A stretch of DNA of 64,000 bases, from assembly GCA_041690355.1 (NCBI GenBank), contig JAWLHK010000026.1, forward strand, positions 1 through 64,000, given 5' to 3'. The stretch comes from a bacterium. Its GTDB lineage: Bacteria; J088; JAWLBW01. The notes below the pieces were generated by a model. It was not told the origin of the DNA. It worked only from the letters and a program-made list of their open reading frames with translations, and ran no database searches. Positions 17,014-36,166 of the stretch are shown here, piece by piece; position 1 is the stretch's first letter; the number at the start of each line of letters is the position of its first letter. The translations under genes were made by a program, and so were the position numbers.

Positions 17014-17349
17014 TTACGAAACCTGGCTTCTTATGATCGAAACAAGCACCAAACTTAAAACAATTACGAACAGGAGCAAGTACGCCCGCTCTACCGCTCT
17101 CACCTGATTCCCTTGTCTGGTTAATTCGTCGTCACCAAGTTTTTCGAATGCGCGTGAGTTAAGAAACTTCCGAACAGAGTTGTTCGTTGAGATGGAGTTA
17201 TTCTCGAGGATGCTTGGCGATCCTAGTTCCCGCCAAATATCTTCATGGCGAGTTCGAAGCGCCTTCAAGAACCGACCCCTAACAAACAAGGTGATTACCG
17301 CCACTAGGGCAAGGGAACCAAGTACCGAGATGATAACCACAAAATCCAT
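17014..17349 (-). CDS. Two-TM protein, putative immunity protein of the orphan Rhs C-terminal toxin
   Basis: Starts 7 nt after the Rhs stop with a GAGG RBS; AT-richer than host; N- and C-terminal TM helices. Confidence 0.7.
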   Translation of the reverse strand: MDFVVIISVLGSLALVAVITLFVRGRFLKALRTRHEDIWRELGSPSILENNSISTNNSVRKFLNSRAFEKLGDDELTRQGNQVRAVERAYLLLFVIVLSLVLVSIIRSQVS

Positions 17350-17356
17350 GGTTGCC

Positions 17357-19259
17357 TCACTTGAAATTGATGATCGTACCGCCGTAACCTACGGTTACGC
17401 TGGCGCCTACACCAACCCCAAAACCAACACCACCCGAAACGGAATTGCCGCCTTCGCTGATGGTACCGGACGCTGTGCCACCTACTCCACCCCCACCAGA
17501 AATGGAACCGGTTACATTTGCCCCACTTGACTGCCCTGCATTTATGTCACCTGTGATCGAAGCACCAAAGCCAATCCCCCAGCCAACACCGACATTACCG
17601 GTAACACCATCGCCGGTTACCGAAACACTGCCTGTAGCTCCGACTATACCGTTGCCCGCATTTACTGTAACGGTGACGCTACCATATTCATTGACGAAAT
17701 CGGACACGGTATCTAAGAACCCGCTTCCCTCGTCGTCACCATCGCTATCTCCATCCCCGTCCGAGTCACCCCCGCCACCGAGCCCCGGGTCAGGTTGGTT
17801 TCGTATTGGACATATCGGAACAAGTCCGGATGGATCAATATAGTTGACGGGGTCATTGTTGACGTAGGCGTAGAGGCCTGTGCTTCCACCGGAGAATAAC
17901 ACTGGGTCCTTGGAGGTCCACCGGCCCGTGATAGAGTCGTAGTCCCGCTTACCAAAGCGTGTAAGTTTTGTGTCCTGGTCAATCAATCCACCGGCAAAGG
18001 CAAATGGCTGAAAATCCGGATTGGTGTCTGAAAGGATGTTCCCGAAAACGTCATATTTGATTTCCTGGACGACCTGGCCAGTGTGTGTATTAACCACCAA
18101 GACTGGGGACCCAGACTGGTCTGGGATGATTTGGTAGGCCGTACCATCCTTTACGACATAGCTTGGTGTATTCGCCTGCGCACCATAAATGAAACGACTC
18201 ACCACCTGCCCTCGGCCGTCCAACTCTGCCACGACTTTTCGCTTGCTTTTGTAGAGCCATCCTTTAACGAGCAAACCATTGACTTTTTTCCCAACGCGGC
18301 GATTGTTTCCATCAATCACATATTCAACTGTCTTGGAGACCACGCCGCCCGCATTCCTAAACACCACGCCGAGCAAGTTCCCAAATGCATTGTACGTAAA
18401 CTCCTGGCTTTCCCCTGTAACTGTGTTCTCCTTCTTACCTAACTCCCCATTCGCCGTGTACTCATACACGAAATCGCCATACGACAGCAACCGATCCTGC
18501 GCATCATACGTACCCGTGAACGAACCAAGTTGCCCGCTGTAAGAAAGTCGATTCCCGTTCGCGTCGTACGTGTAGGTCGAAGAAGCGACCCCATTCTTGT
18601 CCACGCCCACCAACCGACCGGCGAGATCGTAGTGGTAGTCGAAGGTCGTGGTGACGCCGTTGACCGTCTCCGTCTTGCTCGAAATGCGTCCGATGGCATC
18701 ACGCACATACGAAACGTCGTAAAGAGTGTTCGTACCGTTAAAGGTCGCCGTGTAGCCGATGGGTTCGGCGAATCCGTTGTAGCTGATCGAATCGGAAACG
18801 CCGCCGATGCTCGACCCCGTAATCAATCCATTATCAGGGTCACGAGCGATAACAAAGTTCACCGCTGAACCGTTGACCGTCGTGTTCGCCCCCGTCAACA
18901 ATCCGTCCAAATCATAAGTGAAGTTCACGGTGTTCGCACCGTTAACCGACTCCGAAGTGATCCAGAAGTTGTTGTCGTAAGTTCTCGATACAGAACCGTT
19001 GACCTCGCCGTTGCTCCACGTCGTGGAGAGCAGCAATGAACCATCGTAAGCATACGACAGCACCCCACCATCCGGTGCTGTAATGTTCGCCAACCGACCA
19101 GCGGAGTCGTAGCCGAGCGTGGTGTCGCCACGGGGCTGTACGATCTTCTTCAGTCGCCCCGTGTTTGGATTAGGCAGCGGAAGGCGAGAGTCGTTGTCCC
19201 CCTCGTAGAGGTACTCCACCGTGACGCCATCAGGTCGGTTCACTGCAACCAGTTGCTTC
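17357..19259 (-). pseudogene. Orphan Rhs C-terminal half (YD repeats, core, Gly-rich CT) lacking N-terminus
   Basis: From KQLVAVNRPDG onward the protein is near-identical to part of 28958-36166; core end YVNNDPVNYIDPSG; upstream in-frame sequence is unrelated. Confidence 0.88.
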
Positions 19260-19512
19260 CACTGATGACAATAGAAACCGGAACCCCTGCTCTCTCCCCT
19301 GAAGACCGTTGTCGAGGGGATGGAGAGTGACCGACCCGTATAGCTGAAAGTGTAGCGACTCCGCCTCCACAAACCGCCGATTTTCGGGCGGAAAGATGGC
19401 CATTCTCCCCTGAACGAGCGGAGCGATTCGTGTAGCAAAAAATGTAGCTACTGGGGGTCAAAAACCCGGCTTTAAGCGTACAACCAGACATTGCGACTAC
19501 TTGGCAGGCATT

Positions 19513-20510
19513 CTATTCTGCTGAGTTCTCATCGCCTGAAAGGTATTCATCAAGTCGCAAAAAGGCTCGCCCCACTTCAGACAGCGCTAACTCATAAGTC
19601 AGTTCAAACCCTTCATCGTTGTCGTATTGAGCCTTGATTTCGTCCAGTGACATACCCTCGAACTGTTCAACGAAATCGTCCCATTCCATCGTATGCATGA
19701 TTACTTCACCTTCAGCGCAGACGCCATGGTGGGTATCAAAAAGGTCTTCGAGATAGAACTCTCGATCCATATCGTCTTCAGGGTCGTCGCCTAGGCTGGG
19801 AAATGAGGCCCACGGAAAGAACATCTGCAACTGCTGCTTCAACACATCAAAACCACCCCACAAAAAGAACCAACTTGACAGCTCGACAGGGGTCTCATCG
19901 CTCTTATCGAGGAGAGAAATACTTCCTCGTGGCACGACTTTATTTGTGAATACGACAAATCGCAAGACGAGTAAGCGCCCTTCATCGACGGCCTGTATCC
20001 ATGGTTTTGCCAGATTGAGACGGAAGAGCCTCTGAATTGCCAAGGGTTCGGCAGTCAACGCTTCGAGAGCTTCTCTGTTCGGCTCGTCGATAACATTCTC
20101 CCGAGGGACTTCGACATACCAGCCCTTGGGCGTCCTTCTAGCCGTTGCCTCTGTAATCTCCTTCCAGTATGCCGTGCTGGAAGATTCGTCGAACAGAACT
20201 ACAATCACTGGCAGATCGTACTTCAGCCAGTAGTCCAAGTCGTCAAGGCTTCCTCGATACCGCCACCCGTTCCCTGACGGCATCGGCTCGTCAAACGCGG
20301 ATGTCCCTGCTTTCACCTGAACACCGAGAAGACGACCGGTCGGCACATAATCTTTGCCCTTCTTCTCGGTGATCTCAATCTGGCGTCAATGCCGACATCG
20401 CGTTTTTCCTGTGGTCGATAAATGTAGCGCAGATTTCTCTCAACCACATACTGGACGCCAGACTGCCCCGTATCTCCCGTCGCCTGCTTGTCAGAAACTG
20501 TTTTCGTCAT
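19513..20510 (-). pseudogene. DUF4365-family PD-(D/E)xK nuclease-domain protein, 1-nt frameshift
   Basis: RPQEKRDVGIDA(Q)IE...LLGVQVKAG...YWLKYDLPVIVV; frame shifts at 20382-20383; total length 998 nt. Confidence 0.75.
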
Positions 20511-20615
20511 GCTTTGGACTTGCAATGGATCAACTCTCACTCATGGAACATATAGCCACACAGCAAGGCATTCTACCAAGCCTTCGCTCTGCTGTGTAGC
20601 TAGATTATCTCTGGG

Positions 20616-21728
20616 TCAGGTGGCCGAAAGAATACCGTCCATCTTCTCCGCCGCTTCTTTCTGCATCGTCGGGAGGACGTGGGAGTAGCAGTTGAGCGTC
20701 GTTTCGATGGAGGCGTGGCCGAGCCGTTCCTGCACGATCCGGGGATGGACGTTCTTCTGAAACAGCAGGGTGGAAGAGGTATGGCGCAAATCCTGAAAGC
20801 GGATGTTCGGCAGTCCGGCCCGTTCAAGGATCGGCTTAAAGGAAGTCACATGGACGTTTTCCTTGCGCAGCGGATTGCCGCGTTTGTTGACGAAGATGAG
20901 AGAAGCATCCCATCCCTCTTTCTGCATCCGCCACTGGTGTTCCCGGAGAACCTTCATAGCGAATGCCGGCAGTTCGACCTTTCGGCGGCTGGTGGGGTTC
21001 TTCACGTCGGAGATGGCCAGTCTCCCTCGTACGTTGGCGAGACTTCTGCGGATGGTAATACTGGCGTTATCCCAGTCCACGTCCTTCCACTCCAGCGCCG
21101 CCAATTCTCCGAATCGGGCACCGGAGGCGATGGCAAGAACGTACAGGGCGTAAAGGCGATTCTTCGCGGCCTCGGTGAGGAATCGTTGGGTCTGTTCAGG
21201 ATCAAGAACAGTCCGGGGCCGATAACGAGGAACTTTCGGAGCCTTGGCATTCGTACAGGGGTTTTCGTGGAGGACGCCCCAATCCACCGCCTGTCGGAGA
21301 GACCGGTGGAGAACGGTGTGGAGATTCTTGCGGGTACGTCTTCCCAGCCCCTTTTCTTCGAGAAGCTGGTAGAAGTCCTGAATGGCGACGGTCGTCAGGT
21401 CAGCGAGCGCCACATGGCCGATGTACGGGGTGATGTGCAGGCGAATGGTGGAGGCGTAGTTATCGACCGTGGTTGGTCGAAGGGTCATGGTGGCGTCCTG
21501 ATGGAGCCAACGGTCGAGGTACTCCCCGACAGATTCCAGTGCCCCGGCACCGCGTTCATCGATGACCGTATGAAGGGCTGTTACCTTGGCCTCGACTTCT
21601 TCGCGGCTGGAACCGTATAGGACTTTCTTTCTGGCCTTTCGGGTGGCGGTCTTGGGGATGGATACAGCACCACACCAGCGTCCGTCTTTGCGCCGATAGA
21701 TACTGCCCTGTTGATTACGTCCCGCCAT
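20616..21728 (-). CDS. Tyrosine integrase with N-terminal arm-binding region
   Basis: GSIYRRKDGRW, SGARFGE, FQDLRHT, RLGHAS, catalytic Y in CYSH. Confidence 0.93.
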   Translation of the reverse strand: MAGRNQQGSIYRRKDGRWCGAVSIPKTATRKARKKVLYGSSREEVEAKVTALHTVIDERGAGALESVGEYLDRWLHQDATMTLRPTTVDNYASTIRLHITPYIGHVALADLTTVAIQDFYQLLEEKGLGRRTRKNLHTVLHRSLRQAVDWGVLHENPCTNAKAPKVPRYRPRTVLDPEQTQRFLTEAAKNRLYALYVLAIASGARFGELAALEWKDVDWDNASITIRRSLANVRGRLAISDVKNPTSRRKVELPAFAMKVLREHQWRMQKEGWDASLIFVNKRGNPLRKENVHVTSFKPILERAGLPNIRFQDLRHTSSTLLFQKNVHPRIVQERLGHASIETTLNCYSHVLPTMQKEAAEKMDGILSAT

Positions 21729-21876: not shown

Positions 21877-22512
21877 ATGAGTACCATCGGCTCCATGATC
21901 CGCCAGAATCGCCGGAAGAAAGAGCTTTCGCAGGCGCAACTGGCGAAGAAGATCGGCATTGACGCAACTTTCCTCAGTCGTATAGAAACCGGCAAGGCGC
22001 GTATCAGTGTCCGTCATGCACCGGCGCTGGCGAAGGCCCTCGATCTCGATGAAGCCGAGGTCATACAGGCCATCGAGGCATCGGCTCCACCCGTGAGTGG
22101 GCGCGGAGTCGGGAAAACGCCTGCTGGCAGTGAAGGCGGAAATGTCGCCGTGGTGGCCGAAATCGCGGCGGAAGAGGGTCGGTATACCCTTCTGGAAGAA
22201 AGTCCGCTTGTGGAGGCTCCGAGCGGCCTCAAATCGGCTGATCCGAACCTGCTTGCCGTCAGGATCAGCGGGAATGGTTACAGTCCACTGGCCGAAGACG
22301 GGGACATTCTCGTCATCTCCCCGGCACGGGCCTACCTGCCCAACGATCTGGTATTTCTGCGCACGACGGACAATCGCGGTTACGTGGGAAAGATTCAGTT
22401 CGAGGGCGATCAGGTCGTACTCCTGCCCGTTCAGCCCAAGCAGGCGAAAATCCGGCGGAAGAAAGGCGAGATTGAAAGCCTCTCCCGTGTAGTCCTGCGC
22501 TACGTGGCGTAG
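21877..22512 (+). CDS. XRE-family HTH repressor with C-terminal S24-like domain
   Basis: LSQAQLAKKIGIDATFLSRIETGK; C-terminal VRISGNGYSP..EDGDILVI. Confidence 0.85.
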   Translation: MSTIGSMIRQNRRKKELSQAQLAKKIGIDATFLSRIETGKARISVRHAPALAKALDLDEAEVIQAIEASAPPVSGRGVGKTPAGSEGGNVAVVAEIAAEEGRYTLLEESPLVEAPSGLKSADPNLLAVRISGNGYSPLAEDGDILVISPARAYLPNDLVFLRTTDNRGYVGKIQFEGDQVVLLPVQPKQAKIRRKKGEIESLSRVVLRYVA

Positions 22513-23108
22513 CATCGCTATTCCCTCCCCGCCGCCTGTTCAGCGGCACATCCAACACATCGGGATCACGTATTCTGGCACATCGGGGATCGCTCCGGCA
22601 AGCGAGTGTCAAGTATACGGAGGGAGTGAAAATGAGTTTGCATTCCCAGTTTATAAACCGGGAGTAAAAGCCAGTGTTCCCTCTGAATAACTACTCGCGG
22701 ATCACCTGTGAGAGTGCAATCACAAAATCACTTGGCCGGAGTAGTTGACTCCGGTGAGTATTCGGCTACCCAGTTGACGGGGGAAAGTGGGTATATTACT
22801 ACCCGTTTTTGGCGGGGTTTTATGCGACCTGCACTGGAAAGGAATGCTGGCATGGAACTAGCATAGTGTGGAGACGTGCCGGAAAACTCCCCTCACGGGA
22901 TGGCACGAAGGAAATTTCGGGTCGTTGCCTGAGCCTTGATCGGGCGTTCTTTCTTTATCCGACTTCCTTCAACAAGACAGCGATGTGTGGTTGCAGAAAG
23001 AGTTTCTGCAAGCAGGCGAGCTATGCCAATACTCGCATAGCCTCTCCGATAGGAGAGTTACGCCCACACATCACCTTTGTTGAATGGCAGTTTCAAAAGG
23101 TGAAAGAA

Positions 23109-25364
23109 ATGAATGCCATGAATAATGATCTGCTGCTCAGTGCAGCCCTTGACTACGCCAAGCGCGGCTTTTCCGTACTTCCCCTCCATTCTCCGATCTT
23201 CGATGAAGACGCTGTTCGGTGTTCTTGCGGGAACACGAGCGAAGACCATCGAAAGCATATCGGCAAACATCCCCGAACGCCGCACGGGTTCAAAGATGCG
23301 ACCACCGACGCTGAAAAGATTCGCCGCTGGTGGACTGATTACCCTGACGCTAACATCGGTATCGCCACGGGCAAGGTGTCTGGGATTTGGGTTGCCGACT
23401 ACGATCCCCGGAGTTCTGAAGGCGAGCGTTCATATATTGAACGATTCGGCCCTCAGAGTACGCCCCACACGCTCACCGGCGGACTGGGAGGCCACTTCCT
23501 CTACGCCTACCATGATGACCTTCCGAAGGGAGGCATCAAGGGCATTGACATCAAGTCGGACGGGGGTTATATCGTAGCTCCCCCCAGCCGCCATTTTTCC
23601 GGACGTGTATACGAATGGCAGGTTGATTTGGACACGCCTCTGGCCGATGTTCCCGTTCACTTGCTGGATGTGATCAAGAATGCAAGGAGGGGGGCAGGTT
23701 ATCTTGCCCCGGCCCACATCAGGCCTGTTCATCCGTACACCTACTGGGTGCGATGGGCCATCGAAAAACGTCTTCCCTTTCACGGTGAAGTGAGGAGGAA
23801 TGCATTCTTCGACCTCGCCTGTCAGCTTCGCGACAATCGCTACCCGTCAGACGAGTGCGAGGCGGCTGTGGAGGCGTACTGCGTTGCTGTGACCGACCTG
23901 AAGGATCATCCCTTTGATGTCGAGCAGGCAACTCAGATTCTCGACGACGTGATGACCAGAGAACCCCGTGATCCCGTCGTGGCTCGCGACGGTGGTCGTC
24001 CACTTACCGATCTTGCCGTGGCCGAAAGGTTCGCAATTGATTACGGCGAGCGCTTCCTCCACTGCCCCGAATTCGGTCACTGGCTGGTCTGGGACGGCGT
24101 CGTCTGGCGGGATGGTCGTGCAGAGGAAGTCTGGGAAGCAGCCTTTCAGCTCGTCCGCCGGATTCGGGCCGAGGCTGTTCGATCGAAGAAGAACGACGAA
24201 CAGGCCGAGGAAAAGAAGTACGATCCGGTGAAGGGGGCAAACCTGCTTCAGCGTAAGAGCCGGATTGAAGCGATCCTTGCCCTTGCAGGCCAGATGCTCA
24301 CCCGACATCAGCACGATCTCGATGGCGACGACAGCCGGTATCTGCTGTCCGTCGAAAATGGCACGGTCGATCTGAAGACCGGCAAGCTGCTCCCTCATGT
24401 ACCGGGGCGTTACATTACAAAATCCTGTCCTGTGACATTCGACGCGGAGGCAACCTGCCCCCAGTGGGGTTCGTTTCTGGATCGGGTCTTCGCCGGGAAT
24501 CAGGAACTTATCACCTACCTCCAGAAGGTGGTTGGCTACTCCATGCTGGGAATTACCAGCGAGCATGTTCTCTTCATCCTCTACGGAAGCGGCCGCAATG
24601 GTAAAACAACCGTTGTCGAGACGATTCGTGCAATGCTCGGCGACTATGCTCAGCAGCTTCCGGAGGGGGTTCTCACGAAATCCGATGGATTTGCCCGCAA
24701 AGCAGAGAATGCCGTTGCACGGCTTCGAGCGGCGCGGTTTGTGACAGCCACGGAACTGGAGGAAGGTGAACGGCTGGCCCCGGCCACCGTAAAGCTGCTT
24801 ACCGGCGGTGACAGGCTCGTTGGCAGGTTCCTCTATCGTGAGCACTTCGAGTTCGAGCCGCAGGCTGCATTCTGGATCTCGACGAACTACCGCCCGCACG
24901 CCGATGCAGATGACATGGCATTATGGGAGAGAATTCGTCTGATTCCATTCAGTGTGACTATTCCGGCAGAAGAACGCGATCCTTATCTGCGCGGGAGACT
25001 TCTGAAGGAACTTCCCGGCATTCTGAACTGGGCAATTCAGGGATGCCTTGCCTTCCAGCGCGAAGGACTGAAGACTCCGAAGGCCGTGGATGAGGCGTCG
25101 TCCGAATACCGGGATGAAGAGGATATCCTCGCCTGCTTCGTTGAAGAATGCTTTGATCACTCGGAGGCTGAATACAAGAACCCCAACGACGAGGTATGGA
25201 AAGCCTACGGAGATTGGTGCGACTTCAACGACGAGCGGAAACTCGCACGAAACACCTTCTTCAAGCGCATGCGGGAAAGAGGTTTCGAGTCCCGGAAATC
25301 CGGCAGTACCCGCTATCTGATCGGTTCAAAACTGACGCCGAAGGATACCAGCGTCGGTTTCTGA
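23109..25364 (+). CDS. Bifunctional Prim-Pol plus D5/P4-family SF3 primase-helicase
   Basis: ALDYAKRGFSVLPL, KHP, DATTD, ANIGIATG, GGYIVAPPS; Walker A GSGRNGKT; KLLTGGD. Confidence 0.92.
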   Translation: MNAMNNDLLLSAALDYAKRGFSVLPLHSPIFDEDAVRCSCGNTSEDHRKHIGKHPRTPHGFKDATTDAEKIRRWWTDYPDANIGIATGKVSGIWVADYDPRSSEGERSYIERFGPQSTPHTLTGGLGGHFLYAYHDDLPKGGIKGIDIKSDGGYIVAPPSRHFSGRVYEWQVDLDTPLADVPVHLLDVIKNARRGAGYLAPAHIRPVHPYTYWVRWAIEKRLPFHGEVRRNAFFDLACQLRDNRYPSDECEAAVEAYCVAVTDLKDHPFDVEQATQILDDVMTREPRDPVVARDGGRPLTDLAVAERFAIDYGERFLHCPEFGHWLVWDGVVWRDGRAEEVWEAAFQLVRRIRAEAVRSKKNDEQAEEKKYDPVKGANLLQRKSRIEAILALAGQMLTRHQHDLDGDDSRYLLSVENGTVDLKTGKLLPHVPGRYITKSCPVTFDAEATCPQWGSFLDRVFAGNQELITYLQKVVGYSMLGITSEHVLFILYGSGRNGKTTVVETIRAMLGDYAQQLPEGVLTKSDGFARKAENAVARLRAARFVTATELEEGERLAPATVKLLTGGDRLVGRFLYREHFEFEPQAAFWISTNYRPHADADDMALWERIRLIPFSVTIPAEERDPYLRGRLLKELPGILNWAIQGCLAFQREGLKTPKAVDEASSEYRDEEDILACFVEECFDHSEAEYKNPNDEVWKAYGDWCDFNDERKLARNTFFKRMRERGFESRKSGSTRYLIGSKLTPKDTSVGF

Positions 25365-27006: not shown

Positions 27007-27873
27007 TTACCCGAACAGGGTTCGCTGACCACTGTGCTGAATGGCTGTGATTTTTTTCCAGAACTCGGCTCCCTTGGGATTCTTACTCGCAAAAACCAAG
27101 TCGTATAGTGAAACATTCTTCTGCCAGTATTTGATCTTCTGAGAATCACCGACGAAGGAATAGCCGAGATTGCGCAATCTTTCCGTGTATAAGTTCAGGA
27201 GTTGCCGAACTGTTTTCCCTCTCCAATCTGGGGTCCCGAAGTAGATGTCGAATTCGGTTTTCTGGTCCTTCGGCTTTTCCTCCTGATACGGCTGCTGCCT
27301 CTTCAGGTTCATGCCGGTTGGAACGAGGATAAGAAAGTCATTCACCACTTCAGAGAGCTTACGAATAGTTTCCCAATGGATTTCGATGCCGGGTGGGTCA
27401 ATGAACGCAAAGACAAGGCTTCTTGGCCCGAGAGCCTTAACGTCTTCGACCACCTGTTCGACCTCCATATTCGCGTCTCCCTGTCTAATAGAGATGTTTT
27501 TCTCCGGCCTGTAAGAGGTCACACGAGCGTCAAGAGCCTCGACGCAGTGCTTGGACATGTCGACGAAGAAGTAGTGCGTAAAACCAAGTTGCAGCGCAAG
27601 AAGCGGGGAGCCATCAGAGAACGTCTGGTTTGGTCGAACTCGGCAACGTCCGGGGCCAGCGAACAAGTCGATATAGACAAGGTTCGGCCACTTGTTCTTC
27701 ATCCCTTTGGAAAAGATGTCCGCGTAACGGCTGAGGTAATGATGCTTATCTTCATTCCAGTCGCCTACACACCGGCTGGGAAGGCCATCAACGGAGTCCA
27801 TCGCGACGGCACAGCATCCGTCCGTCATGTTTTCTTCTCGATCCTCACAACCGGGGCAGTTCTTGTCACTCAT
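27007..27873 (-). CDS. tcmP: Three-Cys-motif partner protein (TcmP family, methyltransferase-like)
   Basis: W.EDKH.YL..Y, YIDLFAGPG, DGSPL, GDAN, FIDPPG, YDLVFASKNPKG; directly downstream of DUF5131 gene. Confidence 0.85.
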   Translation of the reverse strand: MSDKNCPGCEDREENMTDGCCAVAMDSVDGLPSRCVGDWNEDKHHYLSRYADIFSKGMKNKWPNLVYIDLFAGPGRCRVRPNQTFSDGSPLLALQLGFTHYFFVDMSKHCVEALDARVTSYRPEKNISIRQGDANMEVEQVVEDVKALGPRSLVFAFIDPPGIEIHWETIRKLSEVVNDFLILVPTGMNLKRQQPYQEEKPKDQKTEFDIYFGTPDWRGKTVRQLLNLYTERLRNLGYSFVGDSQKIKYWQKNVSLYDLVFASKNPKGAEFWKKITAIQHSGQRTLFG

Positions 27874-28726: not shown

Positions 28727-28945
28727 CTACCCAACGATCTCAAGTCCAACAACCTTGCCATTCTTCAGGTCGATAACGAGCCTACTTCCATCGCAAAGCT
28801 CATACTCTTTCGACTCCACACCCTCAACCCGGGCACTGCCAAATCTCACATACAACGCCTGCCGAGGCGGTACGCCGTCGTCGTCAGACTGAATGTCACC
28901 TGAGTCCACTGCTTCCACGAGCTTCATAAATTGAATTTCTGCCAT
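28727..28945 (-). CDS. Small acidic DUF2283-like protein, putative immunity protein of the Rhs toxin
   Basis: ALYVRF...VIDLKNGKVVGLEIV; starts 12 nt after the toxin stop. Confidence 0.7.
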   Translation of the reverse strand: MAEIQFMKLVEAVDSGDIQSDDDGVPPRQALYVRFGSARVEGVESKEYELCDGSRLVIDLKNGKVVGLEIVG

Positions 28946-28957
28946 TGAACCTATCCT

Positions 28958-31900
28958 CTATTTCGTCCGCCATGTGGTCACGACCTCCCCATTTTCGTTA
29001 ACTACGACAGTGGCTTCTCTACCCTCGTATCTAGTAGTACCCCTATCTGGCTGCTCGATGACGCTAACGGGATTTTCTACGGCATCCTCCATCGCCTCAT
29101 CGGTAACTTGACGCTGCCTCTGCCGTTCCGCACCGTGCTTTGTTTTTCCCTTAATCTTCTTCCCAACCGCGTTGAGAATAGTCGTGACTGTACGGCGTCC
29201 CGCTCCAGCCATACCACCTGTCAGAACATCGACCACCGTGTCTATGGGATCCCAGTCTGGGTCTTCAAGCGGTGGGTCGTAGGGCGGCGGGGGATATGGG
29301 CAGGTGTTCTCTAGCCCAGAGGGGTCTACCCAGTTAACAGGATCGTTGTTGACGTATCCATACAGATTCAGGCCGCCGCCAAAGCGGATTGGATCTTTGG
29401 TAATCCAAAGTCCACTCGTAGGATCGTAGTCCCTCTCACCGAAGCGTACAAGCCCAGTATCTACATCGTATAGGCCGAATGCAAAGCCGAATGGCTGGAA
29501 GTTGGGGTTGGAGTCATGCTGGACGTTTCCGAATTCATCATATTCAATGTGCTGTACAACATTTCCGGTAACGATATCCACAACATACCGAACCGAACCA
29601 AGGTGATTGGTGATGAGACGATATGTCTTGCCGTCCTTCACCATATACGCGGGTGCTGCCCCGGCAAGATCGGAGAAAAACCGACCCACAACATTGCCGG
29701 TGGCGTCAATTTGCGCGCTTATCCTCAGATTACCACCGTACAACCATCCTTTGACAAACACCCCGTCAATCTTCTTCCCGATTCGACGGTTCTGGCCATC
29801 GATGACGTACTCAATCAACCGACCATCTGGGAGCGACACCGACAGAAGGTTGCCATTGGCGTCGTACCTATACTCCCAAACCTCCCCCGTCACCACATTC
29901 TCTTTCCGCCGCAACTCCCCATTCGCCGTGTACTCATACACGAAATCGCCATAGGTCAGCAAGCGATCTTGGGCATCATACGTACCAGTGAACGAACCAA
30001 GCTCCCCGCTGTACGACAGCCGATTCCCGTTACTGTCGTAAGTGTACGACGACGAAGGGATCCCGTTCTTGTCCACGCCCGTCAACCGACCAGCGAGGTC
30101 GTAGTGGTAGTCGTAGGTCGTGGTGACGCCATTCACGGTTTCGGTCTTGCTCGAAATGCGACCGATAGCGTCACGAACGTAGGAAACGTCGTAAAGGGTA
30201 TTCGTGCCGTTGAAGGTCGCCGTGTAGCCGATGGGTTCAGCGAAGCCGTTGTAGGAAATGCTATCGGAGACTCCACCGATGGAACTGCCGGTAATCAGCC
30301 CGTTGTCAGGATCACGAGCGATGACAAAGTCCACCGCCGAACCATTTACCGTCGTGTTCGCACCCGTCAACAACCCGTCCAAGTCGTAAGTGAAATTCAC
30401 GGTGTTCGCACCGTTTACCGACTCACTCGTAACCCAGAAGTTGTTATCGTAAGTCCGAGAAATGCTCCCGTTGACCTCGCCATTGCTCCACGTCGTAGAC
30501 AAGAGCAACGAACCATCGTAAGCATAAGACAGCACGCCACCATCCGGCGCTGTAATGTTCGCCAACCGACCAGCCGAGTCGTACCCGAAGGTCGTATCCC
30601 CCCGTGGCTGCACGATCTTCTTCAGCCTGCCCGTGTTCGGATTCGGGAGAGGGAGGCGCGGATCATTGTCACCCTCGTACAGGTATTCGACGGTCACGCC
30701 ATCGGGTCGATTCACTGCAACCAGTTGCTTCGCCTGGTTGTAGTCGTAGGTCGTCGCGACGGGGCCGCCGATGCGCGGGGGTTGGTAATCGCTCGTCAAC
30801 CCTGCCGGATTGTAGAGGAACTCGTGCGCCGGGCGGCCGGGGGGCGTGACCGAGGTCAGGTTGCCGGCGCCGTCGTAGGCATAGCTCACGATGCGTCCGT
30901 CGGGGAGCTCCTGCCAGGTCAGCCGGTCGGCCGCGTCGTATCCGAACCGCACACGCCGCCCCGCCGGATCGACCAGCTCGGCCAGCCGGCCCAGGGGGTC
31001 ATAGTCCATCCCGGTCACCCGCGCCTCGCCGTCGGCGGCGGTCTGGCGGATTTCTGTCAGCTTGCCATCGTCGCGGTACGTCAGGTTCGTCGGGGCGATG
31101 CCCGGCGTTTCCTGCGCGACCACGCGCCCCTTTTCGTCGTGGACCGATACCGATTCGCGCCCTTCGGGGGTGAGCCGGCGGTTCGTGCGGGTAGCCGCCC
31201 GCCACTGTGAGGCATAGACACGGCCGTTGACCGTCTGGACCTCATCGCGCGCGGTCATGCTCAGCGGGTCGAGCCGGTTCGCGAGGGTCACCGTCTTCAC
31301 GGTCGTCGAGGTGCGCGTGCGGCCCGAGGCCATGCGCACCGCTTCAGAGGCGGTATAGGGGCTGTTCATGCCGAAGCGCGGGTCGGGCTTGACCGTGGTC
31401 GTCGTGCGGATGCCGCCCGATACGTTGCGCACCGTCGCGCCGCCCGTATCCCGCTCGGTGATCTCGCGGGACCCGTCGGGGCGCGTCACCGCACGCCGCT
31501 CCTGGCCCGAGGCGCCGCGCACGATGTCGATGCGCGTCAGCCGGCCCAGCGGGTCGGTCATGTCGACGCGGCCGCCGGTCTTCGCCAGGTACTGCATGCC
31601 GCCGAGGGGGTTCCGGTTGCGGTAGAGCAGCCCCGAAGCGGTATAGCTTGCCATATCCTCGCCGCCGATGGGGGTCCGGATGCGGCGCAGGAGCCCGTCG
31701 GCGCTGTGGTAGAGTTCTGTCTCGTTCCCCGCCGGGTCGATGACGCCGGCCAGGTACTTGTTGCTGTCGATCACCAGCTCGGTGCGCTGCCCATAGGGCG
31801 CCACGATGGCCGAGGCGTGACCCAGCAGGTCGCGTTCGATCCAGGTCGTCTTTCCGTCGACATCGGTGAGCGACGTCAGCCAGCCGGCGGGGTCGTAGGC

Positions 31901-34900
31901 GAAGGTCCAGACGTCGGCCCCCGTGACGGCGTCGACCGTACGCAGGTGCCGGCCACGTCGGTTAAAGACGTAGAGCTGCGCGCCGTCGCCGGAGGGAACC
32001 ACGTACCGATCGAGCGTCGCGCCGGCGAAGGGTGGCGAAATACGGCGGATGCGACGGTTTCCAGCGTCGGCGAACAGCAGACGCCCCTCCTGATCGAGGG
32101 CCAGGGAGTAAATCTCCCGGTTCGAGGCATCGATCGCCGGACCACCGTCACCCGAAAAGCCGTACCGGCCGTAGTTCCCCAAAAGCCGGGTCCTCGTGCC
32201 GTCTGACCTGAGGCTGAATATCGGGTAGCCGCCGCTACTGCCCCGCTCCACGTAGTAGATGGTACCATCCGGGGCTTGGAATACGGCCATCGGATATCCG
32301 TACATATTCGCGACGGTCGTGATGATGCCCGTCGGTGAGAGCCGCCGGATTGCGCGATTGTTGCTGTCAGCGATCAGAATGCCGCCATCGTTCGCAATGG
32401 CGACGGCATAGGGAGCAACCACCGTCGACTGCGTGCCGTACACGCCGTTTTGGTACGAACTGCCCCCGCCGGCGACCGTTTCGATACGACCATCCGGCAT
32501 GACCCGCCGGATGCGATGCGCGCCCGTGTCTGCAATGAACAGGCTGCCGTCGGGGTGCAGGGCGATTCCGCGCGGGCGGGTCAGCGTCGCCTCTGTTGCG
32601 AGACCGCCGTCGCCTGTCGACCCCTCGACGCCTGTGCCGGCCACCCGGTGAAGAATGCCGTCGGGGGTTACCTTCCAGACGCGCATGCCTCCAAACTCGG
32701 CGAAATAGACGGTTCCGCCCTGGTCGACTGCGACCCCGGCAGGCCAGAGCAATCTGACGCCCGCTGCCGATGCGCCGTCTTCGGGTTCTGTGGAACCGCC
32801 CCCGGCAACGCGGGTCACCGACCCGTCAGGCCAAAGGCGGCCGATCCACGGATACTGGGTGCCGGCAATCGCTCTTTCGCTGAAGAACACGGAGCCATCG
32901 GGCCCCATGGCGATAGCCTCCATCCCCAGCGGTCGGTAGGCCAGGGTTTGCACCGTGTTGGGGAGATCCTGAACACGGCTCGTGTTGCCGTCGCCTGTCA
33001 TCAGAATTCCCGACCTGGCATCGTAGTGATGGTGTTCGCTCACCGACCAGCCGTTGACGTGGGTTCCTTCCCACGTGCCAAGCTTACCGGACCAGGAGGT
33101 CGAACTGTCGCGAAGGATGTAGTTGCTGCCGGCGTAGACGGAGAAGCTTCGTCCCCATGCGGTCAGGTTGAGACTGCCGAACAGCGCCGGGCACTGATAG
33201 TACTCGAACCCGTCGTGACACCAGAAATCTGAAATCAGATACTCGAACCGGTAGACGTACGTCAAGGTCACGTTGACAGGCTGCGGCCCTTGAAGGCGCC
33301 GACCATAGGCATCGAGACCATCCCATTCGAATACATACTTCGCTCCAGGGGCCGGCACCGCGTAAATTCGATGCCGATTTCCTGCAATACTGATGTCCAG
33401 TCGCGCATGAACGACATTGGACGGCGGAAAGTCGGAAAACAGCGGGATCGTGAGTCTGCGCGAAGCCTTCTGCCCGGGAACCCGCTGACTCTTGTAGTTC
33501 AGTTTAAGTCCGGTTCCCGTGATGGCAATCGACTCCCCAAAGGCCTGTGTTTCCGGGTAGACGATACACCCCGGGCAGGGGGTGTCGGGCTCGGCCGTGC
33601 CTTCGAGTTCGGGGGTCGCGGTACCCGATAGATCCGGCGCGGGAGCATCCAACTCCGCGAACAGATGGTTGTAGTCCTTATCCGAGAAGTGGCTGTGCTC
33701 GACCCGCCAGACCGACTGTCCGACCGCATACGTTTCGGCGAGCAGCCGGCGCTCGTCGTCCGTGATGCCCAGCGCGTCGAGGCGCGAGATCGGGTCGGCG
33801 GCCCCATCGCCATCGGTATCCAGCAGGGCCATCCCGGCTTCAACGCCGACCAGCGCCATGACGGCGCCGTTCTCGAGCGGCGACCAGATGGCCTGGCTGC
33901 GGTCGTAGGTGCCCACGGGCATGGCCGTGCCGACCGGGAAGCCGTAGAAGTTCTCGACGTAGGCGATCACCGGCTTCGAAAACGTCACCCCCGTTGCGTC
34001 TGCCGCGATGGCTTCGTCGGCCGTGTAATTGATCGCAAAGGTATAGGCCGTCGACGAGGGGAGCTCTCCGGGCATGGCCGCGGGCCCGGCCGCCCCCACC
34101 GTGTACTCGGTCGCCCGAATCGTCAGGGCGTCGACCTCGGTCAGGCTGCCGTCCCGGGCCTTGAGCCACGCGCGGGTGCCGGGTGCAAAGACCAGCATGG
34201 GACGGCGGGCCCCCACGTCATCGGCGACTTCGGAGCCGACCGCCGTCTGCAGTACAGGCGCCGACATGCCGATGACGGTCGCTTTCGGATCGTAGGGGGT
34301 GAGCACGACGTCGTCAAAGGTGACATAGTCCTGCCACGGGATGTCGCGCGTGCGCTGCACGGGCATGTGCCCTTCGAGGTGGTACTCGAGCGTCACCCGC
34401 CCCCCGCCGTTGACGGCCAGATCGAAACGGCCGTCGCTCCGGGTCAGCGTATAGCCGAGTTCGGGGTGGCCGTTGATGACCACCTGCACGCCGGGAAGGG
34501 GCTCCTGTTCGCGGTTGAGCACGCGCCCGCGCAGGACGGCAATGCGGTTCGCCACGATGGCGCCCGATGCGACCCCCATCTGGATCGGCGCGGGTCCCTC
34601 GAAGAGAAAGCTGGTGGCCTCATACAGGTCGGTAAGTTCAATGGGGCTCAGCGGCGGCGCCACCGTAGCGGGGTCGGGCGGGAGCACGGGGCCGCCGGGG
34701 TAAACGACGATCTGAATCACGGCTTCGGACGATTCGAGCTCGCCGTCGCTCGTGACGAACGTGAAGCTCGTCGTGCCGGACCAGCCGGGCAACGGAACGA
34801 ACGTGAACATGCCCGTCCAGGTATCGAGGCTGACCGCCCCGTAGGGACTCTCCTGACGCAAGTGAAAGGTCAACGGCGCGCCTTCGGGGTCGTGGCCCGA

Positions 34901-36166
34901 CAGATAGCCGTCTACCGGCATGCCCTCCTGCGTCGTAAAGGTCGCCCCCCAGGCGTAGGGGGCCACGTTTACGTGCCGGACTTCCAGGTAGGCGTCGACC
35001 GGGTCCGAATAGGCCTGACCGTCGAAGACGCGAAATGCGAACCGATCGGTTCCGTACCAGCCGGCACGCGGCGTATAGGTGAACGAACCGTCGGCGGCAA
35101 GGTCCAGGACGCCGTTCGAGGGGCTGCTGAACACCGAGTACGCGATCGGATCGCCGTCGATATCGGAGCCGTGGAGCTGTGCGTACAGGGTCTGACCCTC
35201 GTCCAGGACGCCGGAATACGGTTGCGCTTCCGGCGGATCGTTCACCGGGAGCACGGTGAGAGACACCGTCGCCGGAGCCGAATAAAGACTGCCGTCGAAG
35301 ACATGGAAGGTAAACGAAGTCTCCCCGTACCAGTCGGCGTCGGGGCGGAATTCGAAACCGCCGGAAAACGGATCGATAACGACCGCGCCGTGAGCCGGCG
35401 GGTCGATCAGGCCGAACTGTAGCACGTCGCCGTCGACGTCGTGGGCAGGCAGCACGCCTGCATAGACCGTATCCTCGAGGCTCTCGACCTGCAACGGCCC
35501 GGCAACGGGCGCATCATTGACGGGGAACACGAGGAGGGTCACGGTCGCGTAGCGCACGTAAGCGCAGTCTTCGACCTGATAGACAAAGCTGGTCGTGCCG
35601 TTCCAGTCCGCATCCGGGGTGAACGAGAAGGTACCGGAGAGCGCATCGATTTCGGTGCGGCCGTGCGGGCTTTCTTCCGCGAGGCTGAACAGGAGCACCT
35701 CTCCGTCGCTGTCGGTTGCATACAACGTGCCGCTTACGCTGGTATCCTCGTCGAGCGACGCAGACGAGTCCCACGCGACAGGCGCCGTATTGTTCTTCAA
35801 CGCGAAGATCGGCACGCCCGTTTCGGCAACCCGCGTCCCGTCCAGGTAAGCCTCGAGTTTGTACGCGGCGCCATCCTTGCCGTTGGTCGCGGGCCAGTGC
35901 TTTCCGGTACGCAGAGAATACGTCCCGCTCGACGTTCCTTGCGCCGTGACGACCGGACTGCGCCAGTAGACTTCGCCTGTGTGCCGGGTATTCGTCAGCA
36001 CGAGCTCGACCGCGCTCAGGCTTTGCAGCTCGGCGCTCCAGCCTACGGTAAGATTCGAGCAGGCATTCACGGGACGGGGGCTGACGCTCAGGTCGATGGC
36101 CGCCGCGAGGACGGCCGACGGCAGCGCGAGCAGTCCTGCGACCGCAAGCATGGCAACGCGATACAT
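28958..36166 (-). CDS. Teneurin-like Rhs/YD polymorphic toxin (signal peptide, tandem Ig/cadherin-like repeats, TTR-like domain, NHL propeller, YD shell, C-terminal toxin)
   Basis: VNDAP/D.DGD repeats; TRSDGRFDLAVNGG; GWSVSEHHHYD; NHL GDGG repeats; YD repeats; core end YVNNDPVNWVDPSG; CT TKHGAERQRQR...GEVVTTW. Confidence 0.92.
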   Translation of the reverse strand: MYRVAMLAVAGLLALPSAVLAAAIDLSVSPRPVNACSNLTVGWSAELQSLSAVELVLTNTRHTGEVYWRSPVVTAQGTSSGTYSLRTGKHWPATNGKDGAAYKLEAYLDGTRVAETGVPIFALKNNTAPVAWDSSASLDEDTSVSGTLYATDSDGEVLLFSLAEESPHGRTEIDALSGTFSFTPDADWNGTTSFVYQVEDCAYVRYATVTLLVFPVNDAPVAGPLQVESLEDTVYAGVLPAHDVDGDVLQFGLIDPPAHGAVVIDPFSGGFEFRPDADWYGETSFTFHVFDGSLYSAPATVSLTVLPVNDPPEAQPYSGVLDEGQTLYAQLHGSDIDGDPIAYSVFSSPSNGVLDLAADGSFTYTPRAGWYGTDRFAFRVFDGQAYSDPVDAYLEVRHVNVAPYAWGATFTTQEGMPVDGYLSGHDPEGAPLTFHLRQESPYGAVSLDTWTGMFTFVPLPGWSGTTSFTFVTSDGELESSEAVIQIVVYPGGPVLPPDPATVAPPLSPIELTDLYEATSFLFEGPAPIQMGVASGAIVANRIAVLRGRVLNREQEPLPGVQVVINGHPELGYTLTRSDGRFDLAVNGGGRVTLEYHLEGHMPVQRTRDIPWQDYVTFDDVVLTPYDPKATVIGMSAPVLQTAVGSEVADDVGARRPMLVFAPGTRAWLKARDGSLTEVDALTIRATEYTVGAAGPAAMPGELPSSTAYTFAINYTADEAIAADATGVTFSKPVIAYVENFYGFPVGTAMPVGTYDRSQAIWSPLENGAVMALVGVEAGMALLDTDGDGAADPISRLDALGITDDERRLLAETYAVGQSVWRVEHSHFSDKDYNHLFAELDAPAPDLSGTATPELEGTAEPDTPCPGCIVYPETQAFGESIAITGTGLKLNYKSQRVPGQKASRRLTIPLFSDFPPSNVVHARLDISIAGNRHRIYAVPAPGAKYVFEWDGLDAYGRRLQGPQPVNVTLTYVYRFEYLISDFWCHDGFEYYQCPALFGSLNLTAWGRSFSVYAGSNYILRDSSTSWSGKLGTWEGTHVNGWSVSEHHHYDARSGILMTGDGNTSRVQDLPNTVQTLAYRPLGMEAIAMGPDGSVFFSERAIAGTQYPWIGRLWPDGSVTRVAGGGSTEPEDGASAAGVRLLWPAGVAVDQGGTVYFAEFGGMRVWKVTPDGILHRVAGTGVEGSTGDGGLATEATLTRPRGIALHPDGSLFIADTGAHRIRRVMPDGRIETVAGGGSSYQNGVYGTQSTVVAPYAVAIANDGGILIADSNNRAIRRLSPTGIITTVANMYGYPMAVFQAPDGTIYYVERGSSGGYPIFSLRSDGTRTRLLGNYGRYGFSGDGGPAIDASNREIYSLALDQEGRLLFADAGNRRIRRISPPFAGATLDRYVVPSGDGAQLYVFNRRGRHLRTVDAVTGADVWTFAYDPAGWLTSLTDVDGKTTWIERDLLGHASAIVAPYGQRTELVIDSNKYLAGVIDPAGNETELYHSADGLLRRIRTPIGGEDMASYTASGLLYRNRNPLGGMQYLAKTGGRVDMTDPLGRLTRIDIVRGASGQERRAVTRPDGSREITERDTGGATVRNVSGGIRTTTTVKPDPRFGMNSPYTASEAVRMASGRTRTSTTVKTVTLANRLDPLSMTARDEVQTVNGRVYASQWRAATRTNRRLTPEGRESVSVHDEKGRVVAQETPGIAPTNLTYRDDGKLTEIRQTAADGEARVTGMDYDPLGRLAELVDPAGRRVRFGYDAADRLTWQELPDGRIVSYAYDGAGNLTSVTPPGRPAHEFLYNPAGLTSDYQPPRIGGPVATTYDYNQAKQLVAVNRPDGVTVEYLYEGDNDPRLPLPNPNTGRLKKIVQPRGDTTFGYDSAGRLANITAPDGGVLSYAYDGSLLLSTTWSNGEVNGSISRTYDNNFWVTSESVNGANTVNFTYDLDGLLTGANTTVNGSAVDFVIARDPDNGLITGSSIGGVSDSISYNGFAEPIGYTATFNGTNTLYDVSYVRDAIGRISSKTETVNGVTTTYDYHYDLAGRLTGVDKNGIPSSSYTYDSNGNRLSYSGELGSFTGTYDAQDRLLTYGDFVYEYTANGELRRKENVVTGEVWEYRYDANGNLLSVSLPDGRLIEYVIDGQNRRIGKKIDGVFVKGWLYGGNLRISAQIDATGNVVGRFFSDLAGAAPAYMVKDGKTYRLITNHLGSVRYVVDIVTGNVVQHIEYDEFGNVQHDSNPNFQPFGFAFGLYDVDTGLVRFGERDYDPTSGLWITKDPIRFGGGLNLYGYVNNDPVNWVDPSGLENTCPYPPPPYDPPLEDPDWDPIDTVVDVLTGGMAGAGRRTVTTILNAVGKKIKGKTKHGAERQRQRQVTDEAMEDAVENPVSVIEQPDRGTTRYEGREATVVVNENGEVVTTWRTK

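Follow-up and report, generated by a model that had tools for sequence, protein, structure and literature searches.

Introduction

Phage 21 and e14 are grouped together as elements of the icd type, i.e., elements that replace the end of the gene they enter. In Escherichia coli K-12, e14 lies in icd/icdC, where integrase action has replaced the gene end, and its SOS-induced excision rejoins icd with the old end (PMC13626634, in its passages on e14). The locus described here, in a 64,000-nucleotide stretch of bacterial DNA (the window), resembles e14 in that the interrupted gene continues into the element, which provides a divergent substitute for its 3' end, and the old end (icdC in e14) is stranded at the far side; e14 is SOS-induced, and the element here carries an S24-type repressor. 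It differs in that the replaced end comprises ~590 codons and changes the toxin and the immunity gene, whereas e14 restores the same enzyme. The integrase here also sits at the displaced rather than the reconstituted end, and excision, which is known for e14, is a prediction here.

Rhs C-terminal displacement and orphan arrays were reportedly described by Jackson et al. in 2009 and Koskiniemi et al. in 2014. Passages of two papers, the first citing Jackson et al. and the second Koskiniemi et al., attribute the displacement and the orphan toxin/immunity arrays to homologous and illegitimate recombination (PMC8125069, PMC5361080). As in such arrays, the locus has an intact rhs gene followed by a start-less orphan that retains some of the core and brings a toxin tip and immunity gene of its own. 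Unlike in published arrays, ~480 aa of shell went with the displaced unit, a complete recombinase-bearing replicon lies between main gene and orphan, and the breakpoint coincides with an exact repeat.

For the T6SS effector-immunity modules of Vibrio cholerae, the relevant passages describe sequential displacement, draw an analogy with integrons, and give the authors' statement that there is so far no evidence of integrase help in module insertion (PMC5361080). Here too the new module has been inserted ahead of its predecessor, whose immunity gene is retained, but candidate integrases are present. Integrase-like genes also occur near rhs loci in bee-gut Snodgrassella and Gilliamella, a likeness to our locus, although the sections of that paper on these loci describe no att sites, in-frame junction, or element-borne cassette (PMC5727410). 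Integrases near polymorphic toxin loci, or a likeness to integrons, are thus noted in the cited parts of these sources, which state no evidence tying an integrase to the insertions (PMC5361080, PMC5727410).

Our preferred account is integrase-driven insertion of the element at a 21-bp repeat, with one of two tyrosine recombinases, Int1, as the most probable catalyst. We hold this account tentatively, giving it close to an even chance of being right.

Gene content of the locus

The intact Rhs gene is on the minus strand and encodes a 2402-aa protein (RHS_repeat E 3e-40, TEN_YD-shell E 1e-29, TTR_TEN1-4, TEN_NHL). Its N-terminal 1811 codons (30732..36166) encode, by Pfam, a signal peptide, Big_9/cadherin repeats, TTR, NHL, and the first part of the YD shell, and are host-like in composition (GC 0.659, GC3 0.812). 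The left, attL-like copy of the 21-mer (30711..30731, minus strand) lies within the intact ORF and is followed by the current C-half, C2 (28958..30710, minus strand), which consists of the last ~480 aa of YD shell and Rhs-associated core and then a ~115-aa C-terminal toxin. C2 matches TEN_YD-shell, RHS_repeat, and TIGR03696 (E 7e-10, above its cut-off), and its tip has a weak DUF4258 match (E 0.005, below the curated cut-off). With its shell, core, and variable tip, the protein appears to be a teneurin-like Rhs/YD-repeat polymorphic toxin.

A putative immunity gene for this second toxin (28727..28945, minus strand) encodes a 72-aa DUF2283-like protein (E 2.6e-4, 21.6 bits vs a cut-off of 23). 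The DUF4258 and DUF2283 families pair as toxin and antitoxin. By eye, a hairpin at ~28650-28726, after the DUF2283-like gene, closes the Rhs-immunity unit ahead of the next gene.

That next gene encodes a DUF5131 protein, phage Gp37/Gp68-like (27883..28599, minus strand; PF07505 E 1.6e-106; phrog_2045), and is followed by TcmP, the three-Cys-motif partner of DUF5131 (27007..27873, minus strand; TIGR04474 E 6e-43). Int2 (25793..26791, minus strand; PF00589 and SAM_1) is an Xer-like tyrosine recombinase whose type is frequent on plasmids: tblastn found matches in 2703 plasmid records, the best at 52% identity. The plus strand carries a PrimPol and D5_N/P4-family primase-helicase (22809..25364; Pfam; phrog_1156), which probably starts near 23109 and is 39-42% identical to primases of small plasmids, and a CI/LexA-like repressor with HTH_3 and Peptidase_S24 domains (21877..22512; Pfam; phrog_4). 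Int1 (20616..21728, minus strand) is a phage-type tyrosine integrase whose N-terminal domain is SAM-like (PF00589, E 3e-26 over positions 2-169 of 172; SAM_3; phrog_1, E 5.5e-71).

The DUF4365 gene (19513..20540, minus strand) matches only positions 37-137 of the 139 in its Pfam profile and is apparently truncated or frameshifted near 20340-20365; an out-of-frame ORF upstream (20313-20540) resembles the missing N-terminus by eye and has no Pfam match. Beside the right 21-mer is a 253-bp non-coding element end (19260..19512, minus strand), where the 11-nt sequence TTCAGGGGAGA is directly repeated (19293-19303 and 19404-19414). These are its only two copies in the window at up to one mismatch, and 25 of 100 whole-window shuffles gave at least two; they could be arm-type sites.

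The sequence-only reading had placed a toxin/immunity pair, two recombinases, a repressor, and a primase-helicase between the repeats. That inventory holds except for the identity of the repressor, which is the plus-strand gene at 21877-22512 and not a 259-aa minus-strand ORF. With its long intact ORFs, the DNA between the repeats is plausibly a self-replicating integrative element.

The right, attR-like 21-mer copy (19239..19259, minus strand) provides the opening codons of the orphan. The orphan C-half, C1 (17357..19238, minus strand), comprises the end of the YD shell, the Rhs core (TIGR03696 E 5.5e-5, below its cut-off), and a ~150-aa Gly-rich C-terminal domain. Its frame is open down to 17357, giving 634 codons from the K of the 21-mer; there is no start codon or N-half, and stop codons lie upstream of the W|KQLVAVN frame. 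Past the Rhs-associated core, the tails of C1 and C2 are only 17-28% identical. Next comes a putative immunity ORF for the Gly-rich toxin (17014..17349, minus strand; 111 aa), with hydrophobic ends by eye and no family match in Pfam or other profile searches, including PHROG. C1, a start-less 3' homologue that ends in a separate tip and is followed by a small gene, qualifies as an Rhs orphan module.

The repeat and the edge of homology

The 21-mer, GAAGCAACTGGTTGCAGTGAA on the minus strand, occurs exactly at 19239-19259 and 30711-30731, and both copies encode KQLVAVN in frame, as had been claimed from the sequence alone. The window contains no third copy at up to two mismatches, and none of 100 shuffles reached two matches. 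The copies are 11,472 bp apart, i.e., 3 x 3824, so a deletion between them would preserve the reading frame. Within the 21-mer is a dyad of 5+5 nt with a 2-nt spacer, which we judge unremarkable by estimate rather than computation.

The whole 4.64-Mb genome likewise has only two copies, both at the Rhs locus, a count which bears on whether the locus could be an assembly artefact. The chromosome might hold N-half, core, and C1, with a free circular element (core beside C2) threaded into it by the assembler: such threading would leave a segment lying between two copies of one exact repeat, and the genome is a 42-contig draft. However, the 21-nt repeat, and even the longest exact block shared by C2 and C1 (41 nt), is shorter than ordinary reads and larger assembler k-mers, both junctions are clean and in frame, and no contig carries an alternative junction. 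We therefore consider an artefact highly improbable, and even if true it would imply an episome with an Rhs C-half beside an att-like core, which favours insertion at the 21-mer.

The claim that the 21-mer marks the edge of homology is borne out. In 30-nt bins, ungapped identity between C2 and C1 is 0.27-0.33 above 19260/30742 and ~0.8 below, and the onset is abrupt, with homology opening at one and the same nucleotide of both 21-mer copies and missing a single base further out. Beyond this edge, the two halves are 83.6% identical at the nucleotide level over 830 nt without gaps, and the proteins are 97% identical over the first ~270 codons. In 30-codon bins, third positions agree at 0.50-0.67 as far as codon 240 and at 0.80 over codons 241-270. 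The sequence-only reading was thus right that the proteins are similar, but ~40% of third positions differ rather than most. Divergence is dS 0.83 and dN 0.054, and the dS indicates old alleles rather than a recent duplication.

The 21-mer does not stand out as an identity block, an outcome that the sequence-only reading had itself named as refuting it: the longest exact blocks in the C2/C1 alignment are 41, 26, 26, 21, and 20 nt, so it ranks fourth and its length by itself proves nothing. Exact runs of at least 21 nt start at 34 of 810 alignment positions (4.2%), and the chance of one falling right at the edge of homology is about 4%, which, together with the age of the alleles, speaks for the preferred account.

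This alignment also supports an alternative that leaves the integrases uninvolved, in which a circular element with a 5'-truncated Rhs C-half entered by a RecA-driven, Campbell-type single crossover anywhere in ~1.4 kb of 84%-identical shell. Such a crossover at any point of the homology yields the observed map, the 830 nt of ungapped homology contain three exact blocks longer than the 21-mer, and the tRNA habit of the Int1 family (see below) mismatches an Rhs site. Homologous recombination, however, works poorly at 84% identity when the exact blocks are short. The position of the composition change, described next, also weighs against this alternative, and we regard it as unlikely.

Composition switch and origin of the halves

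The host-to-foreign change in composition falls on the left border of the 21-mer, GC being 0.735 at 30800-30999 vs 0.55 at 30400-30599, and 0.71 in the last 900 nt of the N-half vs 0.56 in the first 275 codons of C2. All eight codons examined upstream of the left 21-mer end in G/C, while four of the seven codons within it end in A/T, making this copy the first stretch with foreign codon usage in the intact Rhs ORF. A RecA-driven entry would require two independent coincidences, i.e., that the resident gene is foreign from the 21-mer on and that the element's fragment starts at the same base. Two coincidences at one boundary themselves point to a site-specific event as their source.

The displaced half, too, is foreign. 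GC3 of C1, like that of C2 and the element, is 0.53-0.69, vs 0.81 for the host, and host-like DNA returns directly after the C1 immunity gene, with the low-GC island stopping at the stop codon of the 17014-17349 ORF. Since C1 is compositionally as foreign as the element, it is not simply the host's original end, and the same boundary must have been used at least once earlier, a requirement that counts against our account.

Attachment sites and integrases

Several features are those of an icd-type element: a tyrosine integrase inside, an identical 21-nt core at the edge of homology, an element-borne 3' part, and an orphan at the far end. Where e14 and its like have the integrase adjacent to the att site at the gene-entry end, neither candidate here does so. 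Int2 is ~4 kb away from where the gene enters, and Int1 is at the displaced end, co-directional with the Rhs gene and 1.36 kb from the right repeat, its nearest boundary, with a decayed gene between.

A polarity opposite to this is found among Int1's relatives. A search of GTDB genomes gave 24 loci, the best of them 35-48% identical over the whole protein with the same Pfam architecture, a likeness that places Int1 in a family of tRNA-targeting phage-type integrases. All 24 loci were fetched, and in 13 of the 16 scanned, a convergent tRNA lies 82-247 bp beyond the int stop, so that in those elements the target gene enters at the integrase end. Unlike elements of that kind, ours has no tRNA or tRNA fragment at its ends: no tRNA genes were found in the window, the longest match of 49 genomic tRNAs to 16300-31000 is 12 nt, and an Rfam search of 15500-31500 gave no match at E up to 0.1.

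Other exact repeats flanking the element, which could be rival att sites, were limited to a 12-mer at 20567/28603. We rejected it because it is a -10-like TGGTAGAAT before two genes, and 18% of shuffles gave at least 12 nt. A search for arm-type motifs common to the two element ends gave none at 9 nt or longer, and no excisionase was recognised, there being six small ORFs without a Pfam match. An integron was also rejected: Int2 scores 23.4 bits vs a TIGR02249 cut-off of 265, and no attC-like repeat family was seen.

These results can also be read as two unrelated events, with C2 displacing C1 by homologous and illegitimate recombination, the accepted model for orphan arrays in the cited portions of the literature (PMC8125069, PMC5361080), and a separate, partly decayed integrative plasmid landing or becoming trapped in the spacer. 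The plasmid would then sit between immunity gene and orphan, its own att sites unrecognisable. A stranded element fits the tRNA habit of Int1, the broken DUF4365 gene, and the failure to recognise an excisionase, and the hairpin ends the Rhs-immunity unit ahead of DUF5131. Orphans in this family of proteins, moreover, commonly lack a visible recombinase: the C-half contigs of the five Nitrospirota genomes checked carry no integrase. Yet the illegitimate joining would have had to cut the orphan exactly at the base where foreign sequence starts in the main gene, the element adjoins the orphan's first codon directly, and the searches for direct repeats, tRNAs, and tRNA fragments gave no other ends for the element. 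On balance we consider two separate events rather doubtful.

Relatives of the element and of the Rhs halves

Among 5.8 billion proteins, the closest non-self relative of Int1 is 46% identical. Neither Rhs nor other element genes occur at the 24 Int1-relative loci, where, of 12 window proteins used in tblastn, Int1 alone matched. Searches of GTDB, metagenomes, viral contigs, and proteins found no relative of the element inside any Rhs gene. In the viral contigs, one primase matched at 33% and nothing was related to the C-half. The four loci obtained from metagenomes with a four-sequence C-half alignment (25-27% identity) are all distant ordinary Rhs genes without element genes.

The genome comparison covered 60 other genomes, one from the same family and three from the same phylum, the lineage being sparse. 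Related genomes with an empty site, which had been suggested as a check, were looked for in this set and none was found; C-half matches occurred in 10 of 61 genomes (G000 included), all at no more than 44% identity. The four nearest genomes have no ortholog of the Rhs N-half (best 33-38%). In larger samples, C-half matches were found in 7 of 351 Nitrospirota genomes and in 10 of 401 Chloroflexota genomes, with one match each in the latter (four candidates per genome were scored, and extra copies may be missed). In the five Nitrospirota genomes checked, homology extends upstream of the junction.

Two proteins speak for recurrence of this boundary outside our locus. In P0002, a 643-aa orphan-like ORF from another assembly, homology begins exactly at ...W|KQLVAVN, after unrelated sequence. 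Among the 120 best near-length matches and 150 best representatives, it is the sole protein with homology starting at the junction codon, and it may share descent from the same old event rather than record an independent one. P0004, a 3390-aa full-length relative, is 0.67-0.77 identical over the first 120 residues past the junction, against a family mean of 0.30-0.60 there (86 relatives), and at or under the family mean upstream of it. We do not treat this step as strong evidence: the family-wide profile shows that the C-half is generally more conserved, and only the first ~120 residues stand out.

Proposed mechanism

That the locus has an element-borne replacement gene end and a displaced old end is supported by the arrangement described above; we infer the role of Int1, the single crossover, and its reversibility. 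The element would run from 19260 to 30731 (11,472 bp, including one repeat copy), would be plasmid-like, and would carry at one end a promoterless cassette of Rhs C-half, toxin, and immunity gene. A single reciprocal crossover within the KQLVAVN block, at the 5' edge of the cassette, would have brought the element into the resident teneurin-like Rhs gene. The resident N-half would now read in frame into the element's shell end and DUF4258-like toxin, and the former shell end, Gly-rich toxin, and membrane immunity gene would be stranded downstream as the orphan. Reversal would return the gene in frame to the first toxin and release a replicating circle.

The proposal that the 21-mer is an att core thus stands in part. 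The edge of homology, the composition switch, the in-frame junctions, and the lack of a rival att among the repeats searched speak for it, while the length of the block, the tRNA habit of Int1, the foreign composition of the orphan, and the lack of an Rhs-inserted relative in our searches speak against it.

More broadly, small replicating elements may use a conserved codon block in teneurin-like Rhs shell genes as their attachment site, producing an SOS-responsive, integrase-driven, in-frame toxin switch; we regard this as possible, though somewhat short of an even chance. The promoterless cassette of shell end, toxin, and immunity gene would then be an att-proximal arm, the switch would make use of the host's own delivery shell, toxin modules would spread among distant hosts, and the P0002 breakpoint and P0004 similarity step would be footprints of the same process.

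Significance

At polymorphic toxin loci such as Rhs, CdiA, and T6SS effectors, new tips and orphan arrays are usually ascribed to homologous and illegitimate recombination. The locus described here is real and unusual, and its integrase-driven reading is partly supported. It provides a concrete, testable case, in which defined candidate att sites and two candidate recombinases occur together with an SOS-type repressor, and an in-frame change from one toxin to the other is predicted. Should the reading not be borne out, the locus would still show clearly that a displaced Rhs half can take a third of the shell with it. If it is true, toxin modules could travel as cargo of self-replicating elements that can do without delivery machinery of their own, and gene-end replacement of the e14/icd type could change the function of a protein, not merely preserve it.

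A shared boundary between two Rhs C-terminal halves

The minus-strand 21-mer GAAGCAACTGGTTGCAGTGAA has copies at 19239-19259 and 30711-30731. These are the only two in the window, with up to two mismatches allowed, and the only two across the whole 4.64-Mb, 42-contig genome. Each copy is translated as KQLVAVN as part of a long ORF, and the copies are spaced 11,472 bp apart (3 x 3824). These results uphold the exact, two-copy, frame-sharing repeat reported by an earlier sequence-only reading. That the arrangement is an assembly artefact strikes us as very improbable.

We refer to the current in-frame C-terminal half of the Rhs gene as C2 and to the displaced, orphan half as C1. An ungapped comparison found that the two regions share no similarity on the gene-5' side of the repeat but are ~80% identical from there on. 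Nucleotide identity between C1 and C2 is 83.6% across 830 nt, with register lost to indels farther downstream. The sequence-only reading described nearly the same protein with most third positions changed; the first part agrees with the 97% protein identity over the first ~270 codons, but third positions are still 50-67% identical up to codon 240. Over the following ~200 shell codons identity is about 50%, and it is lost in the unrelated C-terminal tails. Together, the near-identical protein, the diverged third positions and the substitution rates (dN 0.054, dS 0.83) argue for C1 and C2 being old alleles under strong purifying selection, with no recent duplication. By the same protein identity and dS, these first ~270 codons, a third of the shell, are far more constrained than the remainder. 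Nei-Gojobori counting on C1 17357-19258 versus C2 28958-30730 gives 32 'non-synonymous' steps for just ~9 amino-acid differences, an excess we think comes from serine, leucine or arginine codon-family switches.

The perfect block had been proposed to mark the edge of homology. Similarity is indeed absent upstream of it, but at 21 nt it is shorter than other exact blocks in the C1/C2 alignment (41, 26 and 26 nt), where exact runs of at least 21 nt start at 34 of 810 positions. What is special about the 21-mer is its location at the very edge of homology, rather than its length.

Gene content of the locus

The teneurin-like Rhs protein (2402 aa, 28958-36166, minus strand) has a signal peptide, Big_9 and cadherin-like repeats, a TTR domain, NHL repeats and a YD shell, and its C-terminus consists of an Rhs-associated core and a ~115-aa tail. 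Weak matches, both under the curated cut-off, link the tail to DUF4258 and the following 72-aa ORF (28727-28945) to DUF2283, the two forming a putative toxin/immunity pair; a hairpin, seen by eye, comes next. Continuing along the minus strand, there are a DUF5131 gene and its partner TcmP, the Xer-like recombinase Int2 (relatives on 2703 plasmid records, best identity 52%), a PrimPol/D5 P4-family primase-helicase on the opposite strand (39-42% identity to small-plasmid primases), a CI/LexA-like repressor with an S24 domain (21877-22512, plus strand), the phage-type tyrosine integrase Int1 and a DUF4365 gene (19513-20540). This bears out the two tyrosine recombinases, repressor and primase-helicase previously placed between the repeats. 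The DUF4365 domain match begins at profile position 37, missing the first 36, and the gene is probably frameshifted, a probable mark of decay in the element. An ORF upstream of it, in another frame, looks like the missing start.

Between the DUF4365 gene and the second 21-mer lie 253 bp of non-coding DNA which include an 11-nt direct repeat. The orphan C1 then forms a 634-codon open frame (shell, Rhs core and Gly-rich tail), followed by a 111-aa ORF with hydrophobic ends (17014-17349); the Gly-rich tail and this ORF are a second putative toxin/immunity pair. No phage structural genes were found in the element (19260-30731), and the block between the repeats is most aptly called an integrative plasmid or satellite-like element.

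Immediately beside the island is a second gene-end duplication, this one without a recombinase. At 16841-16911 there is a second copy (92% identity) of the final 71 nt of a DksA/TraR-type gene (15946-16302, plus strand). The two copies flank a 538-bp low-GC insert which carries a frameshifted 23S-rRNA-intervening-sequence (four-helix-bundle) gene. The insert is bounded by a 31-nt inverted repeat of CAATGGTC-like units (16313-16343 and 16806-16836).

Composition and age of the orphan

Host DNA has about 66% GC and a GC3 of 0.81, versus 45-63% GC (200-nt bins) from ~17010 to 30731. On the Rhs side, the left edge of the 21-mer marks the change in composition, from 71% GC over the final 900 nt of the upstream N-half to 56% over the first 275 codons of C2. 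All eight codons preceding the 21-mer end in G/C, and four of the seven within it end in A/T. On the far side, host-like DNA is back within a few bases of the 111-aa ORF's stop codon. By GC3 (0.53-0.69), C1 and its neighbouring ORF are no less foreign than C2 and the element. The orphan is therefore not the host's original gene end, and we must assume that the KQLVAVN boundary had already been through one or more replacements. We found no remnant of that replacement's vehicle or of an older, host-like gene end. The only other trace of the C-half family in the genome (G000) is a 33-residue fragment, 55% identical to a portion of the C-half, at contig C20:3623-3721.

A single crossover and the e14 parallel

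The foreign sequence in the intact gene and the homology of the orphan begin at the identical base. If one reciprocal crossover had joined the chromosome to a circle whose Rhs fragment starts at the 21-mer base, this shared start would arise automatically. The accepted route to Rhs orphans, as described in the cited parts of PMC8125069 and PMC5361080, is paired homologous and illegitimate recombination, which has no reason to yield a shared start base. A history of unrelated events, i.e., an ordinary displacement plus a stranded element, is one we regard as unlikely.

The map is the same as that of e14, a cryptic E. coli prophage in icd. According to the cited portion of PMC13626634, icd runs on into the prophage, the C-terminal pseudogene icdC lies at the opposite end, and SOS-induced excision recombines icd with icdC. 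The locus unites gene-end replacement of the e14 type with Rhs C-terminal displacement, and the observation made by the sequence-only reading is confirmed overall. Homologous recombination, through a RecA-driven Campbell crossover inside the 1.4-kb homology, would produce the same map. Even so, the circle's fragment would have to share its first base with the foreign segment already in place, again pointing to a site-specific origin for the boundary, and we consider this route quite unlikely. Integration at the 21-bp block by the element's own integrase is a tentative reading, to which we give a little less than an even chance. These four readings account for nearly all of the probability.

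Attachment sites and recombinases

No att candidate other than the 21-mer exists. The window has no tRNA genes, the 49 genomic tRNAs have no match longer than 12 nt to the island, and an Rfam search gave no match. The only other exact repeat flanking the recombinase genes is a 12-mer, which we rejected as an att site: it is a -10-like TGGTAGAAT before the DUF4365 and DUF5131 genes, and 18% of shuffles yield an equally long repeat. Its identical copies (TGGTAGAATGCC, minus strand, 20567-20578 and 28603-28614) may be a promoter element common to island genes, and the one at 20567-20578 overlaps an extended -10-like site.

The recombinases themselves weigh against an integrase step. Int1 lacks close relatives, the best sharing 46% identity. 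Of 24 fetched loci with Int1 relatives we scanned 16; the other eight lay on short contigs or matched only partially. Thirteen of the scanned loci have a tRNA gene on the opposite strand, 82-247 bp beyond where the integrase match stops, and in these the integrase end is where the target gene runs into the element; the relatives behave as classical tRNA-targeting integrases. Here, in contrast, the boundary nearest Int1 is 1.36 kb off, past a decayed gene, and it is the displaced end, with the Rhs fragment pointing out of the element. Int2 resembles plasmid resolution enzymes, no excisionase was recognised in the element, and Rhs and other element genes are absent from all 24 loci. A change in Int1's specificity would be compatible with these points, but they lower the odds of an integrase step.

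Relatives elsewhere

Genome sampling of the lineage is thin, and we found no relatives carrying the Rhs gene. The protein family itself runs to thousands of members. A junction-spanning query against 1.84 billion representative proteins gave two informative relatives. P0002, encoded on a 5,591-bp contig, is a 643-aa orphan-like ORF whose homology starts exactly at W|KQLVAVN after 36 unrelated residues; it has 86% identity across the first 277 residues and a Gly-rich tail, as in C1. P0004, from a 25,948-bp contig, is full-length (3390 aa) and reads ...TTYDYNLAKQLVAVNRPDGVTV... across the junction. We rejected its rise in identity there as a recombination step because the C-half is more conserved family-wide (profile of 86 full-length relatives). 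Against those relatives, P0004 is at or under the family mean upstream of the junction and stands out solely in the first ~120 residues past it (0.67-0.77 versus a family mean of 0.30-0.60). These proteins show that the boundary is common to sequences beyond this genome, whether by descent or recurrence. Neither a related element nor an integrase adjoining C-half copies turned up in scans of metagenome and viral contigs or in samples from two phyla.

Two close relatives of the cassette (the C2 shell end, putative toxin and immunity gene), P0152 and P0154 (67-71% identity), are truncated about 128 residues past the junction, and an identical odd peptide, ...IWHLASAIWHSQARPA..., stands ahead of each. 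This peptide seems to arise from reading through short tandem DNA units that resemble the inverted repeat of the four-helix-bundle insert, and elsewhere small cassettes of that kind may enter Rhs loci. Across the broader family (~50% identity), P0195, P0199, P0242/P0260, P0214, P0232 and P0270 are orphan-like ORFs with homology starting at (Y)DANGNVT(S/A)ITPPG, about 55 residues ahead of the junction, and unrelated sequence before it. This motif may be a second preferred breakpoint in the family.

Significance

We found no direct precedent for such a locus in the literature searched. Authors in the field state, in the cited parts of PMC5361080 and PMC5727410, that there is so far no evidence tying integrases to effector-module insertion. 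A demonstrated integrase-driven case would hold real interest, and this locus supplies defined sites and enzymes for testing.
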